Below, one piece after another: positions 1 to 60,842 of a stretch of DNA of 64,000 nt. Numbering within the stretch: the first letter of the stretch is position 1; each line of letters begins with the position of its first letter. The translations under genes and the position numbers were made by a program. The notes below the pieces were generated by a model. That model did not search any database, had not been told where the DNA came from, and was given only the letters and a program-made list of their open reading frames with translations. Location of the stretch: sequence record LR597647. One strand, given 5' to 3'. The stretch comes from Escherichia phage rV5_ev147.

Positions 1-258
1 TCGCTTCGCTCCCACACATGTTAACAGACCTTCATGTATGCACTTCTGTTATTGTGTGCACCAAGGAGGCCCGGCATCTCGCCCCTCGTAGGCGAGTGCC
101 AATGAAGGGCCGACACTACCTATAGTAAGTAATAAATTTAAAACATGGTACTTAGGATCTAGTATATTCTACATAAGTTAAGTATATGTACTTAGTACCA
201 TAAGTACTAGATCTTTTATTTTTTTTTATTATTTAGTTATTTTAGTTATATTCTTTAT

Positions 259-341
259 GTGTCCGTATCACGGACAGTTAGTGTCCGTATTACGGACAGA
301 TGTGTCCGCGTGACGGACAGTAGTGTCCGTATCACGGACAG
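259..341. repeat. Four tandem 19-bp palindromic sites (GTGTCCGTATCACGGACAG and variants) phased every 21-22 bp
   Basis: Copies start at 259, 281, 302, 323; half-sites TGTCCG/CGGACA; no T-tract after the stems, so operator-like rather than terminator. Confidence 0.8.
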
Positions 342-415
342 TTACTAACCTCTGTTCCAGAGTGAACATAAAACATACGAATCCTTATAGTACAGATATT
401 TAAGTTTTTACTGGT

Positions 416-766
416 CTAACCAGTTGTTGACATTCGAATAACTTCTTCTGGTGGCAAAACTTTGGAAAATGTGCATCTTTTACCTCTCCCTTGTGTGGAT
501 ATTTCAACCACTCCTGCACATTCTAAAGTTTTAACGCACGCTGCTGCTTTTGTTTTCTTTATCCCAATATCTGCTGCAATTTTCCTTGTGCTGGGCGTGA
601 AGCGTGAATTTCCTCCAAGCTTATACCAGTTGTGCAGGTAGCAGTATACGATCTTGTCATATAAGTCAAGAACAACAACCTCACCAGTTGTGTCATTCAA
701 AACTTTTGACATAGACAGTATTTCAAGGGGGACTTTAAGATATAGCAGCTTATCCCCATCTTTCAT
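416..766 (-). CDS. Putative helix-turn-helix DNA-binding protein
   Basis: ATG at 766 with AGGAG upstream; segment STRKIAADIGIKKTKAAACVKTLECAGVV resembles an HTH; lies next to the palindromic site array. Confidence 0.4.
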   Translation of the reverse strand: MKDGDKLLYLKVPLEILSMSKVLNDTTGEVVVLDLYDKIVYCYLHNWYKLGGNSRFTPSTRKIAADIGIKKTKAAACVKTLECAGVVEISTQGRGKRCTFSKVLPPEEVIRMSTTG

Positions 767-813
767 ATCTCCTGATTCTCCTTGTGTGGCAATTTTCTTT
801 AAAATAGCAGGGA

Positions 814-1368
814 TTACTCCACGCTGTCAATAGCAAGACTCATTGCAATACGGTATGCCTCTTCTAATGGTAAGAGTCTCCCCCACACATCCCAACCGAC
901 ATCAAACTGCCTGCCAAACAACTGCTGTGTGGTTCCGTGAGCATGACCGAACAGTTGGACCGATCCGTGAGGCTTTCTGTTCCACTTTGCAAACTGGTAA
1001 TGGCTCATACAGATCAAATTCTTGTTGTGGCGAAGCTCGTAATAATCTACAACCTCATGACCGAACTCTTTCATAATTCTGACAGTCGTCCTTGTGTCAT
1101 GGTTACCACGAACAAGAATAATATGTCCGTTCAACATATTTAGAACATCTGGGAGCAATTTGTTAATATTCTTATCATTAGTGCACGCAATATCTCCTAA
1201 GTGAAACACAGTGTCTGCAGGTGACACAACAGAGTTCCACTTGGTGATGATCCCCGCATTCATACTGTCAAGATTGTGATCATACTGAGATCTGTGTTTT
1301 TGACATGAGTCAAACTCCATGACCCGCTGGTGGAGAAAGTGTGTGTCGCTTGTTACAAAGTATTTCAT
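814..1368 (-). CDS. Calcineurin-like metallophosphoesterase (Ser/Thr phosphatase or polynucleotide 3'-phosphatase type)
   Basis: Start refined to ATG 1368 (MKYFVTSDTHF) with GAGGA SD; motifs DTHF, GDIACTND, GNHD typical of metallophosphoesterases. Confidence 0.65.
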   Translation of the reverse strand: MKYFVTSDTHFLHQRVMEFDSCQKHRSQYDHNLDSMNAGIITKWNSVVSPADTVFHLGDIACTNDKNINKLLPDVLNMLNGHIILVRGNHDTRTTVRIMKEFGHEVVDYYELRHNKNLICMSHYQFAKWNRKPHGSVQLFGHAHGTTQQLFGRQFDVGWDVWGRLLPLEEAYRIAMSLAIDSVE

Positions 1369-39120: not shown

Positions 39121-39336
39121 ATGAAGATAGAGATATTTGGTGGAGCTGACAACACTCGTGGCCTGATTTACCTTGAATTCGATGAATCATACCTGCCAGA
39201 GGTGTTAAATATAGACTCTGTTGCTGAGGCTTTGGGAGTAAACCCTAAAGAACTCCACTCTTGTGCTGAGATCGATGGTTGGGAAGAGACCATGAACATT
39301 GATTTCAGTGAAGTAGAGGATGAACCGCTGGACTGA
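39121..39336 (+). CDS. Hypothetical small acidic protein
   Basis: MKIEIFGG start, acidic tail; last + strand gene before the non-coding region. Confidence 0.4.
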   Translation: MKIEIFGGADNTRGLIYLEFDESYLPEVLNIDSVAEALGVNPKELHSCAEIDGWEETMNIDFSEVEDEPLD

Positions 39337-39463
39337 CACACAATTAGCTGCCCGGCTAAAGTGCTGGAAGCACCTATAACACATCTTTCAACTAAATTTC
39401 CTACCACCACAATCACTTACCTCCCACACATGACTGTTTGCTTGTTTAGTGAGCAGTCATGCC

Positions 39464-39491
39464 TTGACATTCTTGCCTATCCTGATAAAAT
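39464..39491 (+). promoter_or_regulatory. Sigma70-type promoter with extended -10 and overlapping 8-bp inverted repeat
   Basis: TTGACA (39464-39469), 16-bp spacer, TGaTAAAAT; CATGACTG...CAGTCATG palindrome just upstream; no ORF follows. Confidence 0.45.
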
Positions 39492-39497
39492 TAAGTT

Positions 39498-39775
39498 CTT
39501 CTCTTTTCTTTTACCGAGTAATTCGGGTTTTCTGTTCTCTTCGGTTTGAAGGGGTATAGAGATACACCTGAGTGAACAGGGTGAACAACCGAACCATTAG
39601 CTATGGCATTAGCATGGCGAAGCGGACGGGTGACGAAAGAGGGGCCGGAGGACACCAGTCACTGCCATATGATATATGGGTGATAACCTGAAGAGTCTGA
39701 ATAAGTGTTTAAGTACCAGTCAGAGGAAAAGGTGAATGGTAGCCGAAGGGGGGGAGGGGGGTTTCTTGTATCTTT
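39498..39775 (+). ncRNA. Candidate non-coding RNA ending in a G-rich tract
   Basis: About 280 nt downstream of a good promoter with no ORF; local hairpin CCGAGtaatTCGG; ends GGGGGGGAGGGGGGG + T-run. Confidence 0.25.
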
Positions 39776-40806
39776 AATTTGTATATTATGTATACACTTG
39801 TAAACCAATCTAATCTGAATCTGTTTACCACACAAAGCGGATAGAGACAAATATTGCCTATTAAACTTGAATTATTTATAGAAAATACCACAACACCCCT
39901 TAAGTCTTTGATTTTACACACAAATCCTACAGATATTCAACCTCCATATTTAACATACTTGTAACATATTCCATACTCTACCTGTCTGATCAATTTCCCC
40001 AACTACATTCTCATATTTTCCCTGTCTGTACTACCCCTGCCCCGCCGGGAGTCCCGTCATATCTGGCTTTCCAGCAAATATCACACCCACAAATATCATT
40101 GCCTGAAGAGGGTTTCATCCCATAATACCTGCCTTACCTGAAGAGCGCTTCATACACCACGTAAATTTTTTAATTGACCTCCCCCTGCCCCGCCGGAGAG
40201 GTTGGCTTTTCCCACACAGACCTGAAGAGTCAGCCAGAAATATCTGAATAGGCCCAATTCTACCACGATTTTGACCTGACCTACAGGGAGGCCCGAAGGG
40301 TCTAGCTTTCAGCTAGAGTCCTTGCAGGACCTACAGGAGCGCTGCCAGGCGGACGGAATGGGAATACTTCTCATTCTTATAACAATTCTCAAATATCGAG
40401 GCAGTGAGAGAAATTAATAGGCCAGGCCGTTCACACAGTGGCACAACATTTGCAACCTATTTTGTGTGGATGAATGAGAATACCTATCATTGTGAGAACT
40501 GTTATCATTACGGGCAATTTAACATAATACCCATTATGCGCACCACTGGCGATACATACAAGGATTGATAACATGAGTTACAGTTTACGCATATAACAAT
40601 CATATTTCTTACTATTTGTGTGGGATATAGTTAGCAGCCAATAGATTAGATATTGACCTGCGGACTTCCAACCGTCTAGACGTCTAAACGCCCACACAAC
40701 AAGGATTATACATACATTACTGAATGTAAACAGGACCGCAAAAATGCTACCATACCAGTTTGTAAATTTTTCATGCAGCACTTGACAAAGAGGAGGAAAA
40801 CTTGTC

Positions 40807-40852
40807 TGACATAATGGTGACATAACTGACACGATTGACATAATTGACATGC
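40807..40852. repeat. Five tandem TGACA(T/C)(A/G) boxes at about 10-bp phasing
   Basis: TGACATAA at 40807, 40818, 40836 and variants at 40827, 40845. Confidence 0.7.
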
Positions 40853-40936
40853 CTGACTGTTCACGCTCTCATTATTCCCGCCCTTACTATTCACGCCCTT
40901 TACTGCTTACATTCTTGATAGTCTACATGCTTAATG

Positions 40937-40992
40937 GTTTACATGACTAATAGTTTACATAGCTAACTGTTTACGCATAAACTGTTTACACA
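40937..40992. repeat. Four GTTTAC(A/G) iteron-like repeats at 15-16 bp spacing
   Basis: GTTTACATG 40937, GTTTACATA 40953, GTTTACGCA 40969, GTTTACACA 40984. Confidence 0.7.
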
Positions 40993-41002
40993 GATATGAT
41001 AA

Positions 41003-41302
41003 GCCATGCCATTCGTTTGCATGATAACAATAACGATCAACAACAATAAAGACTGAAATGATAACGTTGTTGATTTGACTGACTAACAATTAACAGGCTA
41101 ATAATCTATGACATAATATAAAAGCAGGGCAACTATTAGCAGATCTATAGTTGCCTTGCTTGTTATGTCATGATTAACTAAATACAAGGCAACTATGATC
41201 TGATTAATAGTTTGCAGACAAACTATCACGGGGGTGATGGTTACTGCTTTTATATTATGTCGCGACTCCGTCGCGCCATGCCATTCGTTTGCATAGTTGC
41301 CT
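41003..41302. repeat. Composite repeat locus: 20-bp direct repeat, 18-bp inverted repeat and GGCAACTAT palindromes
   Basis: GCCATGCCATTCGTTTGCAT at 41003 and 41275; GACATAATATAAAAGCAG (41110) with exact reverse complement at 41244; GGCAACTAT/ATAGTTGCC palindrome at 41128-41155. Confidence 0.75.
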
Positions 41303-41955
41303 TATTGTTACAGATAAAATAATTGTATTGTTAATTATTTCTTATCTTTCTATTAGTCATCTAATGATTCCAGTTAGTATAGTAACGTACAGTAAACATT
41401 AGACGACTAAAGATTTCTCTGATTATGATAACTTGCCGTGACAATTTCAGACTGTTTACGAAAAATGTTGACACCTGAGCTGATTTATGTTATGCAATTT
41501 AAACGAATAATTATTTTATGCAGGTATTGACTATTCTGTTATTCTATGGTCGGAATAAATACTTAGCAGGCTATAGAATGGTGAGCGTACGTAAATTCTG
41601 AGATCTGTCGGCTATAGTTATACTCGATTTTTCACGTAGAACACGCTTTTTGGTTTGTGTAAGTGTATGACTTATAAAGATTTTTAGTTGTTGACAAGAT
41701 ATTGAAGATGTGCATCAGGTTAAATTTTGTGCAATAGCTGCATTACGTGCAATTTTGGAAGGAAAACGGGTAAAAATAGCACCGCTACCACACAATGAAA
41801 GGTTATGCAATAGTTATTTTACATGTATATTTGTACAGTGTGTGGGATTGATGGCTCGTCAATTATTCCACTTGCCAGGTAGGGCCGTTTATGGTAGGGA
41901 GGAAGAGCAGACAAAAAGAAAGGGACCTAAGCCCCTTGATAATTCAGTTAAAAAA

Positions 41956-42375
41956 TTATAATGATTCGTATATTTCAAAAATCCGATTTGCCAGGTCGTT
42001 ACGGTACCGGAATTTTTCATCACGTTTGATCATAAGATCTTTATAGCCGTACTCTTTAAGCACTTCATTAACTTTATGGCGGCACACCTTCATATTATCC
42101 TGAGCGTCACCAATAAACCTGTTGCTATGGTGCATGGCTTTAATTTCTTCTTCCAGGACCAGGGCAACTATGCGGACCGGATCAAGCTGATAGGCGGTAA
42201 CATCCATGCGGCATTGTAAACGGCTTTTTACGTCTGCCACCGGATATACTGCAACCTCTTCCCCGTCAACATTGACAATAATTAGTTTACCATCGATTTC
42301 GAATCCTTTCGCCGCCGGACCGTGACAAAAAGCGTTATCAAAGCTATATGCCGGATTATTAGATTTAATGTTCAT
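41956..42375 (-). CDS. Hypothetical protein
   Basis: 139-aa ORF with minus-strand promoter 42424-42452 and SD upstream. Confidence 0.45.
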   Translation of the reverse strand: MNIKSNNPAYSFDNAFCHGPAAKGFEIDGKLIIVNVDGEEVAVYPVADVKSRLQCRMDVTAYQLDPVRIVALVLEEEIKAMHHSNRFIGDAQDNMKVCRHKVNEVLKEYGYKDLMIKRDEKFRYRNDLANRIFEIYESL

Positions 42376-49297: not shown

Positions 49298-49585
49298 TTA
49301 TAACTTCCTGATCTGTGTGATCGTATCCCAAAAGTCTACGATTTTTGCGCCTCCAGCCTTTAGGCGGTATAGTGTTTCTTGCATCTTGTAAGCCGGGATC
49401 GGTCGCGGTGTTACCTGGTCGCCCTTCTCATTCTTGTACTTGATAATATAGTCTTCATTGTCGTTGAATACCCAAAACGGGTATTCTGTAAGGGCGTTGC
49501 TATCTTTTTCGTTTTTAGATTGGATCTTGTTTACAATTAAAGCCGTAGCAATAGCGCCAATAATAAAACTTGCCCCGCTGATCAT
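49298..49585 (-). CDS. Membrane-anchored protein
   Basis: Start refined to ATG 49585 after AAAGGAGAAAG; N-terminal TM ISGASFIIGAIATALIV. Confidence 0.45.
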   Translation of the reverse strand: MISGASFIIGAIATALIVNKIQSKNEKDSNALTEYPFWVFNDNEDYIIKYKNEKGDQVTPRPIPAYKMQETLYRLKAGGAKIVDFWDTITQIRKL

Positions 49586-59710: not shown

Positions 59711-59965
59711 TTAATGTTCAGGTTTTACAAAAACTACTTCATTAACAGTGCACCAGACAGAGTCTCCTTCATCATCTTTAAAGGTAAGGCACTGTGCTGA
59801 GTTTTCCAGCTCATCGATCTCTTCTTGTGATAAAGGGGCCCCTTCTTCCAGGAGGGCTTTTACCAGAGGGTTCTCACAAAACTCTGCTTCATAAATTGCA
59901 CCGACTGTGCAATCTTTAAAAGCTCGGTCATTTGCAACGCATTCTGACTTCAAAGTAATTTTCAT
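59711..59965 (-). CDS. Hypothetical protein, paralog of ORF 59375
   Basis: Shared (A)F(R/K)DCT block; acidic Cys-containing small protein. Confidence 0.4.
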   Translation of the reverse strand: MKITLKSECVANDRAFKDCTVGAIYEAEFCENPLVKALLEEGAPLSQEEIDELENSAQCLTFKDDEGDSVWCTVNEVVFVKPEH

Positions 59966-60041
59966 CTTAGCAGTCTCCTTAGTTATTTAAAAATCAACGC
60001 TCTGTTTGTGTAAAGCATCTTATATCTAATCTTACTTCTTG

Positions 60042-60413
60042 TCAATGACTATTTTCAATCAGCCACACAGGGTCGAGGTAAATTTGTTGGCGTGTTGCCC
60101 AATGACAAACTTCATTGTACATCTGAACCTCTTTGTCCGTCAGTTCACGAATAGGCTCATCTATACCCCCATTTTTGTGGTAATCCCAGTCGGCATCGAT
60201 TTCCCACAGCCATGACTTGTTGTCACCACGCTTACGCACACAGAAGTCACCAGGACGGCCTGCCAGTGCATTTAAGAACTCGTTCTCCGCTCGCTCCTGA
60301 AGAATACTAAGGAGCAAAACGTTGGAGCATGACCGTAAAATATGCTTCAGCTCACAATCATCAATCTCAACTTCAATACGTTGTTTGACTGTGTGGGTAC
60401 CTTTTACTAACAT
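60042..60413 (-). CDS. Hypothetical protein
   Basis: Start refined to ATG 60413 after GAGGAGG. Confidence 0.4.
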   Translation of the reverse strand: MLVKGTHTVKQRIEVEIDDCELKHILRSCSNVLLLSILQERAENEFLNALAGRPGDFCVRKRGDNKSWLWEIDADWDYHKNGGIDEPIRELTDKEVQMYNEVCHWATRQQIYLDPVWLIENSH

Positions 60414-60423
60414 ACTACCTCCT

Positions 60424-60618
60424 CTAAACGAACTCTGCAAGAGTTGTGTTGTTCACTGCACCGCAGTAAATGGAGTATCCCAGCCCATTAGAGTGCAGAA
60501 ACCACGGCGTGCCGAAATTATCTTTCACGTAGACATCACCGTTGTTTGTAAAGGGCCAATATTCTTCCCCAAGGGTAAAATACCTATTCATACCTTCAGC
60601 AAGATACTTTACTTTCAT
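60424..60618 (-). CDS. Hypothetical protein, paralog triplet member
   Basis: GTPWFLHSNGLGYSIYCG matches GVAWFISHLANGEYHIYG in ORF 60615. Confidence 0.4.
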   Translation of the reverse strand: MKVKYLAEGMNRYFTLGEEYWPFTNNGDVYVKDNFGTPWFLHSNGLGYSIYCGAVNNTTLAEFV

Positions 60619-60842
60619 AGGTCCTCTTCAACAACTACAAACTTGGCAAGCAAAGTGGTTCCGTAGATATGATACTCGCCGTTTGCCAGATGGGAGATAA
60701 ACCAGGCAACCCCTTCCTCGTCTTTAATCATTTTATTTGCACGAGCTTTATCGTAATAAACCTCGTAGGTCTTTCCTTCTTTAAAGAATGACAGGTCTGT
60801 CATCTTTTCTTCTACAAAAGTAGCTTTAACCAAAGTTGTCAT
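60615..60842 (-). CDS. Hypothetical protein, paralog triplet member
   Basis: Shared WF(L/I)SH...G...IYG block. Confidence 0.4.
   Translation of the reverse strand: MTTLVKATFVEEKMTDLSFFKEGKTYEVYYDKARANKMIKDEEGVAWFISHLANGEYHIYGTTLLAKFVVVEEDL

Follow-up and report, generated by a model that had tools for sequence, protein, structure and literature searches.

We describe here a candidate replication origin of rV5-like phages, located at the start of a 64,000-nucleotide stretch of DNA from Escherichia phage rV5_ev147 (LR597647; this whole stretch is called the window, and its coordinates are used throughout). Four phased copies of a palindrome lie there beside a gene for a 116-residue winged-helix protein. 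Judging from the sequence, we consider it somewhat probable (roughly 0.55) that the array forms the part of an iteron-type origin to which the initiator binds, and the array very probably serves cooperative binding by dimers of the neighbouring protein. The locus is most likely an origin; an operator for a gene switch, or an end of the genome, fits less well. The anatomy of the array, its uniqueness in the genome, its pattern of conservation, the fold and homologies of the protein and a parallel module in Escherichia coli plasmids are observed here; from these we infer binding, unwinding and origin activity. We found no publication that defines an origin for rV5-like phages.

Anatomy of the palindrome array

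The sequence TGTCCGNNNNNCGGACA, allowing at most one mismatch, has four matches in the window, at 260–276, 282–298, 303–319 and 324–340. The number expected from 100 shuffles of the window is 0.04, and none of the shuffles reached four, so the four copies noticed in the initial annotation are real. They are the only copies with zero or one mismatch in the 136,385-bp genome, which was rebuilt from record LR694165.1 and the window (mean GC content 43.7%); the next best are two sites with two mismatches. Their starts are 22, 21 and 21 bp apart, about two helical turns, as the 21–22 bp first reported implied. The half-sites TGTCCG and CGGACA were also correctly recognised, but the reported palindrome length of 19 bp was not: the perfect dyad measures 17 bp (6+5+6), with half-site centres 11 bp apart, which suits a helix-turn-helix (HTH) dimer. 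The longer unit of 19–22 bp (GTGTCCG..CGGACAG on the plus strand) is a direct repeat, with asymmetric outer bases (C...C in the gene sense). With four repeats spaced 22/21/21, the array contains the three or more phased direct repeats of an iteron origin. One GenBank record already marks it as a repeat_region.

The intergenic gap that holds the array measures 663 bp (−247 to 415) and is bounded by a minus-strand gene on either side. The array lies 3' of open reading frame (ORF) 416–766, as described before, that frame being on the minus strand and the array 76 nt past its stop codon. The elements of the locus are, in the order of transcription:

801–830, minus strand: sigma-70 promoter predicted ahead of the HTH gene, with the sequence TTGACA-18 nt-TATTTT plus TG, 10/12 match (6830 to 6801 of L001, an extract that includes 6 kb to the left of the window start)
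416–766, minus strand: gene for the 116-residue winged-helix protein (rV5 ORF79 / gp075), candidate origin-binding protein with a DNA-binding domain alone
345–415, no strand assigned: spacer from the HTH stop codon to the array; its array-side half (about 345–368) is the fastest-diverging part of the intergenic region
259–344, no strand assigned: four 17-bp dyads TGTCCG-N5-CGGACA at the positions given above, proposed iterons
121–258, no strand assigned: AT-rich block, proposed DNA-unwinding element, with interleaved inverted repeats at 145–164 and 191–213 and GATC at 156 and 210
210–222, plus strand: GATCTTTTATTTT, which fits the oriC 13-mer consensus GATCTnTTnTTTT without mismatch
1–120, minus strand: right-hand part of a GC-rich structured element, 54–62% GC, which extends about 130 nt to the left of the window (5870–6120 of L001)

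In the direction of transcription, the order is a divergent promoter region (about 1843–1887), genes for a PNK-like ATPase and a phosphoesterase, the sigma-70 promoter (830–801) and the HTH gene (766–416), then the spacer, the palindromes (340–260), the AT-rich block (258–121) and the conserved GC-rich block (120 to about −130), and finally ORF77, small ORFs, six tRNAs, spanins, the large terminase and the portal. The promoter at 801–830 is annotated as P76 in NC_011041, and transcripts predicted to start there would traverse both the array and the AT-rich block.

Conservation of the array in Vequintavirus

Thirteen sequences from GenBank and from metagenome contigs were aligned, 11 of which are complete loci. 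The initial annotation had named conservation in relatives as a test of the array, and four copies with 21/21/22 spacing (gene sense) are present in 11/11 complete loci. The half-sites are invariant save for occasional single-base changes, mostly T to C in one half-site, and changes within the array concentrate in the central 5 nt. About 25 nt of the adjoining spacer diverge strongly, while the spacer half beside the stop codon is kept in all relatives but the most distant one. In that sequence (L006, protein 71% identical), the spacer is mostly replaced past the first 30 nt or so after the stop codon; its first site reads TGTCCG-TCACA-CGGACA, and the following site starts 21 nt further on. 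The commonest variant, TGTCCG to TGCCCG, affects the third site in gene-sense order and occurs in most phages examined. Conservation of the half-site sequence itself, together with this pair-breaking T-to-C variant, is the pattern of base-specific protein contacts on duplex DNA and not that of an RNA hairpin.

Half-sites that are kept while flanks drift, a 6-5-6 dyad, a period of two turns and a single locus all fit a cooperative array of a dimeric HTH protein, and the lack of a second locus in 136 kb argues against a regulator with several operators. The idea of a cooperative array for a dimeric regulator therefore survives in part: an array bound by a dimeric HTH protein encoded next door is probable, and a role as transcriptional operator is less likely (see below).

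The first 1500 bases of the window match 118 phage records, all of Vequintavirus type, with at least 95% identity in 117 of these. Four metagenome contigs (L006, L011, L017 and L018) terminate within or directly after the palindrome array, and MG065672.1 (Campylobacter phage A141, UNVERIFIED; ends L026 and L027) is cut 4 nt short of the first palindrome. Such ends could be a sequencing or assembly artefact of tandem inverted repeats beside 18%-GC DNA, or could be real DNA ends.

The AT-rich block

At 18% GC over 159–258, the block is where the GC content of the 136-kb genome is lowest, for windows of 100 bp and of 150 bp alike, and it provides the adjacent AT-rich region of an iteron origin. 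An AT-rich stretch with inverted repeats had been noted around 164–211; the stretch and the repeats are there, but the coordinates need correction, since the two interleaved pairs are at 145–155/191–201 and 156–164/205–213 (the latter being GATCTAGTA and TACTAGATC, respectively). In the alignments, the block is nearly invariant across the genus. The 13-mer GATCTTTTATTTT is the sole perfect match in the whole genome to GATCTnTTnTTTT, the E. coli oriC consensus that reportedly stems from Bramhill and Kornberg (1988). In this post hoc comparison, 0.08 matches are expected in the window and 8/100 shuffles contain at least one, so the presence of an oriC-type 13-mer in the block is only suggestive of an origin.

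The winged-helix protein

The HTH-like segment seen in ORF 416–766 is borne out by matches to Pfam HTH_36 and DUF6945. The protein also matches phrog_12838, 'replication initiation protein', and, more weakly, the PHROG initiator families 8102, 428 and 270; RefSeq already labels the gene 'replication initiation protein', by homology. These assignments are remote-homology annotations, for a fold that is also common to transcription factors. The rV5 protein family aligns to the N-terminal domain of a plasmid HTH_36 protein of about 300 residues (CP148565.1 allele; hhalign probability 95%, E 4e-8), and weakly (57%) to a MarR-like plasmid allele (CP020521). No terminase family in Pfam or PHROG matches the protein.

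Single-sequence structure prediction of the rV5 protein was useless (pLDDT 38), and an alignment of distant homologues was required. A word-indexed protein search and an IMG/VR scan returned near-identical relatives or nothing, while an exhaustive HMMER search and a profile search recovered distant homologues (P0012, P0015 and P0017–P0028; alignment A4) of 174–198 residues and about 30% identity. Their genes head early operons, beside divergent non-coding regions of 500–850 bp, and one is located 1.4 kb upstream of a Pol A gene. Three of the four divergent regions examined hold repeated short palindromes or repeats, for instance GCCGC-TTA-GCGGC. In L020 (3153–3479) and L023 (2905–3487) these are GC-rich palindromes, with four copies of TAGCCGCTTAGCGGCCA; in L024 (3249–3523) the repeat is CTCGCAGGTACAGACCTA. 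Such repeats may be cognate sites of the homologues, or N4-type hairpin promoters.

A structured element shared with small plasmids

The GC-rich element following the AT-rich block has a 5' hairpin at 65–116 and a 3' domain beginning near position 21. Two segments of it have counterparts, at 84–85% identity, in the non-coding DNA of small circular plasmids from E. coli: CP020521.1 (13.7 kb), CP148565.1, CP035869.1, CP134895.1 and CP043822.1 (39.6 kb). All are typed as non-mobilizable and a recognised replicon type is present in none. The match occurs three times in CP043822.1, possibly a trimer.

Differences between phage and plasmids are compensatory in three helices: CUCGCC/GGCGAG in the phage becomes CUCUCC/GGAGAG in the plasmids, GGCA/UGCC becomes GUCA/UGAC and ACCGAC/GUCGGU becomes GCUGCC/GGCAGC. 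Pair counts and RNAalifold were applied to a 10-sequence alignment of the 3' domain. In the last of these helices (55–60/85–90) three pairs differ at both positions, one phage lineage showing a G.U intermediate, and 99.6% of cells are paired, versus 30–44% when the partners are slid by 1–3 columns. The comparison spans two lineages alone, so the compensatory changes count as a handful of events. Conserved U.G pairs in a closing helix show that it is the minus (gene-sense) strand that folds, either as RNA or in the form of single-stranded DNA. Folded as single sequences, the two strands of the block give z scores of −1.7 and −1.5, which fall short of significance, and the structure is visible through the plasmid comparison only. 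No Rfam family was found at the locus or in the plasmids; a match to rli43 (22.5 bits, against a cutoff of 100) was dismissed as chance. An exact 18-mer scan for the element in 596 Gb of genomes gave 95 matches in unrelated GC-rich bacteria, which were also taken as chance. A TGTGTGG(G) motif recurs within the element, in phage and plasmids alike. NC_011041 annotates a 56-residue ORF78 inside it, where rV5 has an 18-nt deletion.

In the plasmids, iteron arrays precede the structured block in the same orientation as in the phage, within a 2.9-kb non-coding region (NZ_CP020521.1, CP148565.1, NZ_CP035869.1 and NZ_CP043822.1; L030, L128, L129 and L029, respectively). The iteron sequences are allele-specific and their flanks conserved; iterons follow one another at 23 bp or at intervals that are multiples of about 21.5 bp. 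CP020521.1 has, in addition, three AT-rich repeats of 36 nt that separate its iterons from the structured block. The iterons are:

CP020521.1: CGGAAATATTTACCGnGGT, 6 copies, starts 23, 23, 44, 86 and 86 apart
CP148565.1: CTGAAGATTTCTCAC, 4 copies, starts 43, 23 and 23 apart
CP035869.1: CCTGTTGGAATTTCCCAC, 5 copies, starts 77, 43, 23 and 23 apart

The phage palindrome motif is absent from the plasmids, none of whose observed iterons has the sequence of the phage sites. The HTH_36 protein of about 300 residues is the plasmids' sole initiator-like gene product, with matches to PHROG 'replication initiation' and 'O-like' families down to 9.8e-10. These elements are found in at least five independent complete genome assemblies. 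Their persistence as plasmids makes it reasonable to suppose that the HTH_36 protein and the iterons form a replicon; if so, the rV5 gene and array would be a homologous module.

Besides a major capsid protein, the 13-kb plasmids encode proteins related to those of the rV5 baseplate (51% identity), neck (45%) and tape measure (25%), but they have no terminase, portal or replisome. At the nucleotide level, the structured block is their only similarity to the phage. From their gene content, they look like undescribed plasmid-borne satellites of rV5-like phages. Tentatively, and with more doubt than confidence, we suggest that a three-part cis module (initiator sites, unwinding block and structured element) is common to the phages and these satellites. 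The structured element might then be a 'handshake' for the helper machinery, in replisome loading, priming or packaging, while iterons and winged-helix proteins might set a private replicon specificity.

Proposed mechanism and comparison with known origins

In the proposed mechanism, the 116-residue protein would be made early, from its own sigma-70 promoter, and its dimers would occupy the four 17-bp dyads. With sites every two helical turns, the dimers would lie on one face of the DNA, where cooperative packing, bending or wrapping is possible. This distortion, together with transcription through the site, may open the adjacent AT-rich block of 140 bp, at which the T7-like helicase-primase and the polymerase of the phage could enter. 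The GC-rich structured element may aid in priming or in loading the replisome, unless it is an RNA with no connection to the origin.

A close parallel in layout is the lambda origin, which also has four dyad-symmetric repeats of 17–19 bp about every two helical turns. The lambda iterons are 18 bp long and start 20, 24 and 23 bp apart, compared with 22, 21 and 21 in rV5. Both arrays have an AT-rich stretch on one side (A-rich in lambda), a linked gene for a winged-helix protein and transcription crossing them from an upstream promoter (predicted, in the case of rV5); transcription plays a role at the lambda origin. In contrast, the lambda repeats are inside the O gene and the rV5 repeats 76 nt beyond the stop codon, and the rV5 AT-rich block of about 140 bp has inverted repeats of its own. 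Lambda O, with 299 residues, has a C-terminal domain that recruits P and DnaB, whereas the rV5 protein has no such domain.

Iteron plasmids (R6K, pSC101, P1 oriR and RK2, with iterons of 17–22 bp) share with rV5 the phased repeats, the AT-rich region and a winged-helix gene, which in rV5 is putatively the cognate one. Their repeat sequence co-varies with the initiator allele, as it does among the E. coli plasmids described above. Rep proteins of the classic plasmid kind contain two winged-helix domains and attach to asymmetric iterons as monomers, whereas the rV5 repeats are symmetric dyads, suggesting dimers, and are not accompanied by the DnaA boxes of the classic iteron-plasmid origins. The RepA_N proteins (RepA of pSK41/pTZ2162, and RepA of PLE, the Vibrio cholerae satellite that uses the ICP1 replisome) act on semi-palindromic iterons, but have a C-terminal domain that is lacking in rV5.

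Origins of Staphylococcus aureus pathogenicity islands (SaPIs) resemble the rV5 locus in being just downstream of the initiator gene (pri-rep; a candidate initiator in rV5) and in combining short repeats with an AT-rich core; Ubeda et al. (2007, 2008; cited in PMC7145576) are said to have placed them 3' of the pri-rep genes, with iterons flanking the AT-rich region. SaPI Rep is a helicase with hexamer iterons on both sides of the core, while rV5 has 17-bp dyads on one side only. The lambda operators OR and OL, bound by cI, likewise consist of several adjacent 17-bp dyads occupied cooperatively by HTH dimers, as proposed for rV5. However, they overlap promoters and occur at two loci; the rV5 array has no credible promoter overlap and is a single locus beside an extremely AT-rich block.

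Points against an origin

Several observations weigh against the origin proposal. The rV5 protein is a single winged-helix domain without a helicase, primase or loader-recruiting part, so the initiator that would carry or recruit a helicase or loader at an iteron origin is not seen in these 116 residues. In its longer homologues the chain continues into an additional C-terminal region, whose acidic tail ends in PF, PY or PWE and is missing from rV5; the tail is similar in kind to the C-terminal tips with which E. coli SSB and T7 gp2.5 recruit replication proteins. The fold matches transcription regulators as well as initiators. No homology to lambda O was detected (hhalign 0.1%; Phage_rep_O is not among the Pfam matches with E up to 1). 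RepA_N gave no Pfam match and, with E about 0.9, no significant match in sequence; fold similarity to it is no better than to many transcription factors. DnaA and IHF consensus sites were not found in the region.

The distribution of the gene also counts against an origin. In a search of 50,697 phage records, it is restricted to Vequintavirus, and the sister genera of 4MG and muut, which have a related replisome, contain no homologue at the syntenic place (the array was not searched for there). In favour of an origin, the array is 1.5 kb from a point of divergent transcription that coincides with the global minimum of the cumulative GC skew (record position 65826). According to the 2013 rV5 genome paper, however, the skew follows the direction of transcription, and its attempted skew analysis could not define the origin (PMC3606486); the minimum thus counts as weak evidence for an origin.

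Finally, a rival candidate for an origin or pac site exists at 40,800–41,000. This AT-rich and repeat-rich region, placed where two transcription units converge, contains tandem units of 9, 15, 16 and 18 nt (TGACATAAT, CCTTACTATTCACGC and TTACATGCTTAATAGT) and four copies of ACTGTTTACGCATAA. It is within an ORF-free stretch (about 39,300–42,000) already noted in the rV5 paper (PMC3606486).

Alternative explanations

If the array were a transcriptional operator, the winged-helix protein would act at the four sites as repressor, roadblock or activator. It could control read-through from the early operon (ATPase, phosphoesterase and HTH genes) into ORF77, the tRNAs and the late genes, or a promoter of the structured RNA. 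The position of the array is suitable, within a long minus-strand transcription unit and between early genes and the tRNA and structural genes. A relaxed scan also gave a weak promoter-like sequence involving the outermost half-site (CGGACA-15 nt-TAAAAT, minus strand, 9/12 match). No promoter or terminator at the array satisfied the regular scan on the gene strand, however, and none of the 33 promoters and 20 terminators predicted in the rV5 paper is there (PMC3606486). The initial annotation had pointed to the sequence left of the window to show what the array controls; there, the gap runs on to the minus-strand ORF77 and no convincing promoter adjoins the array. An operator overlapping or adjoining a regulated promoter was therefore not found, nor is there a site near the protein's own promoter or elsewhere in the genome. 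Regulation of transcription would also leave unexplained why the array adjoins the AT minimum of the genome, and why the closest informative relatives of the protein are initiator-like proteins beside iterons. We consider an operator unlikely, although it is the strongest of the alternatives.

The array or the structured block might instead be a pac site, marking concatemers for the first headful cut through a small-terminase-like protein. Vequintaviruses are reported to be circularly permuted, headful packagers (PMC8407724, PMC13211470, PMC3606486), and no small terminase is identifiable beside the large terminase, both upstream genes being Rz-like spanins (1956–2638 of L001; record 59956–60638). 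The structured block is all that the terminase-less, satellite-like plasmids have in common with the phage at the nucleotide level, and the truncated sequences noted above, the A141 record and four metagenome contigs, break off in or at the array. Although it merits some consideration, packaging is an improbable function. The HTH gene belongs to the early operon, about 4.5 kb from the terminase gene, and its product resembles initiators, not small terminases. The palindrome motif cannot be a packaging signal shared with the plasmids, as it is absent from them, and the compensatory changes in the structured block indicate folding of a single strand rather than recognition of a duplex. The other listed genome records have scattered start points, as for arbitrary cuts of permuted genomes. 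The related suggestion of a terminus-proximal site does not hold: the window start is internal to the LR694165.1 record, and so not near a genome end, and the genus is reported to be circularly permuted.

Another possibility is a conflict or incompatibility module, in which a DNA-binding-only copy of a plasmid or satellite initiator interferes with satellite-like plasmids, or is recognised by them, and does not fire phage replication. In keeping with this, the homology between the rV5 protein and the initiator-like protein of the plasmids is confined to the N-terminal domain of the latter; the plasmids also encode relatives of rV5 neck, baseplate and tape-measure proteins, and the module is genus-specific. 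Its likelihood is slight, as the phage sites are unlike every plasmid iteron seen and their motif is absent from the plasmids. Moreover, the array, AT-rich block and structured element are near-invariant in the 13 aligned sequences and the flank is at least 95% identical in 117/118 records; such near-invariance suggests a core function.

Least credible of all is that the palindromes act as hairpins with 6-bp stems and 5-nt loops in the 3' untranslated region of the HTH mRNA or in single-stranded DNA, possibly as stabilisers, as sites of processing or as structures that bind proteins. Transcription from the promoter at 801–830 probably covers the region, with no terminator between, and the loops vary while the stems are kept, but no U-tract follows any stem, the 24 stem pairs show zero compensatory double changes, the common TGCCCG variant yields a C.A mismatch on the mRNA strand and the sequence itself is conserved, beyond pairing. 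A scan for intrinsic terminators at the array found none.

Significance and additional observations

Few coliphages are isolated as often as the Vequintavirus phages, which serve as components of cocktails for therapy and biocontrol. The locus provides a concrete 350-bp origin candidate with a candidate binding protein; if the assignment is true, it would offer an engineering handle, for minimal replicons and conditional replication. The plasmid link points to an undescribed helper–satellite pair in E. coli and to a new structured nucleic-acid element, which has no Rfam family and forms a more novel thread than the array itself.

The window corresponds to positions 64001–128000 of LR694165.1 (Escherichia phage rV5_ev156, Vequintavirus), its first 1500 bases being 100% identical to 64001–65500. 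Small indels relative to this record occur near 49,327 (13,327 of L010), and register is regained by the end of the window. Among the database records, 18 'Campylobacter phage' entries (host C. jejuni, several UNVERIFIED) are 98% identical to rV5-like coliphages, which makes their host assignment look doubtful. An rV5-like genome of 137.6 kb has been deposited as an E. coli plasmid (CP057073.1).

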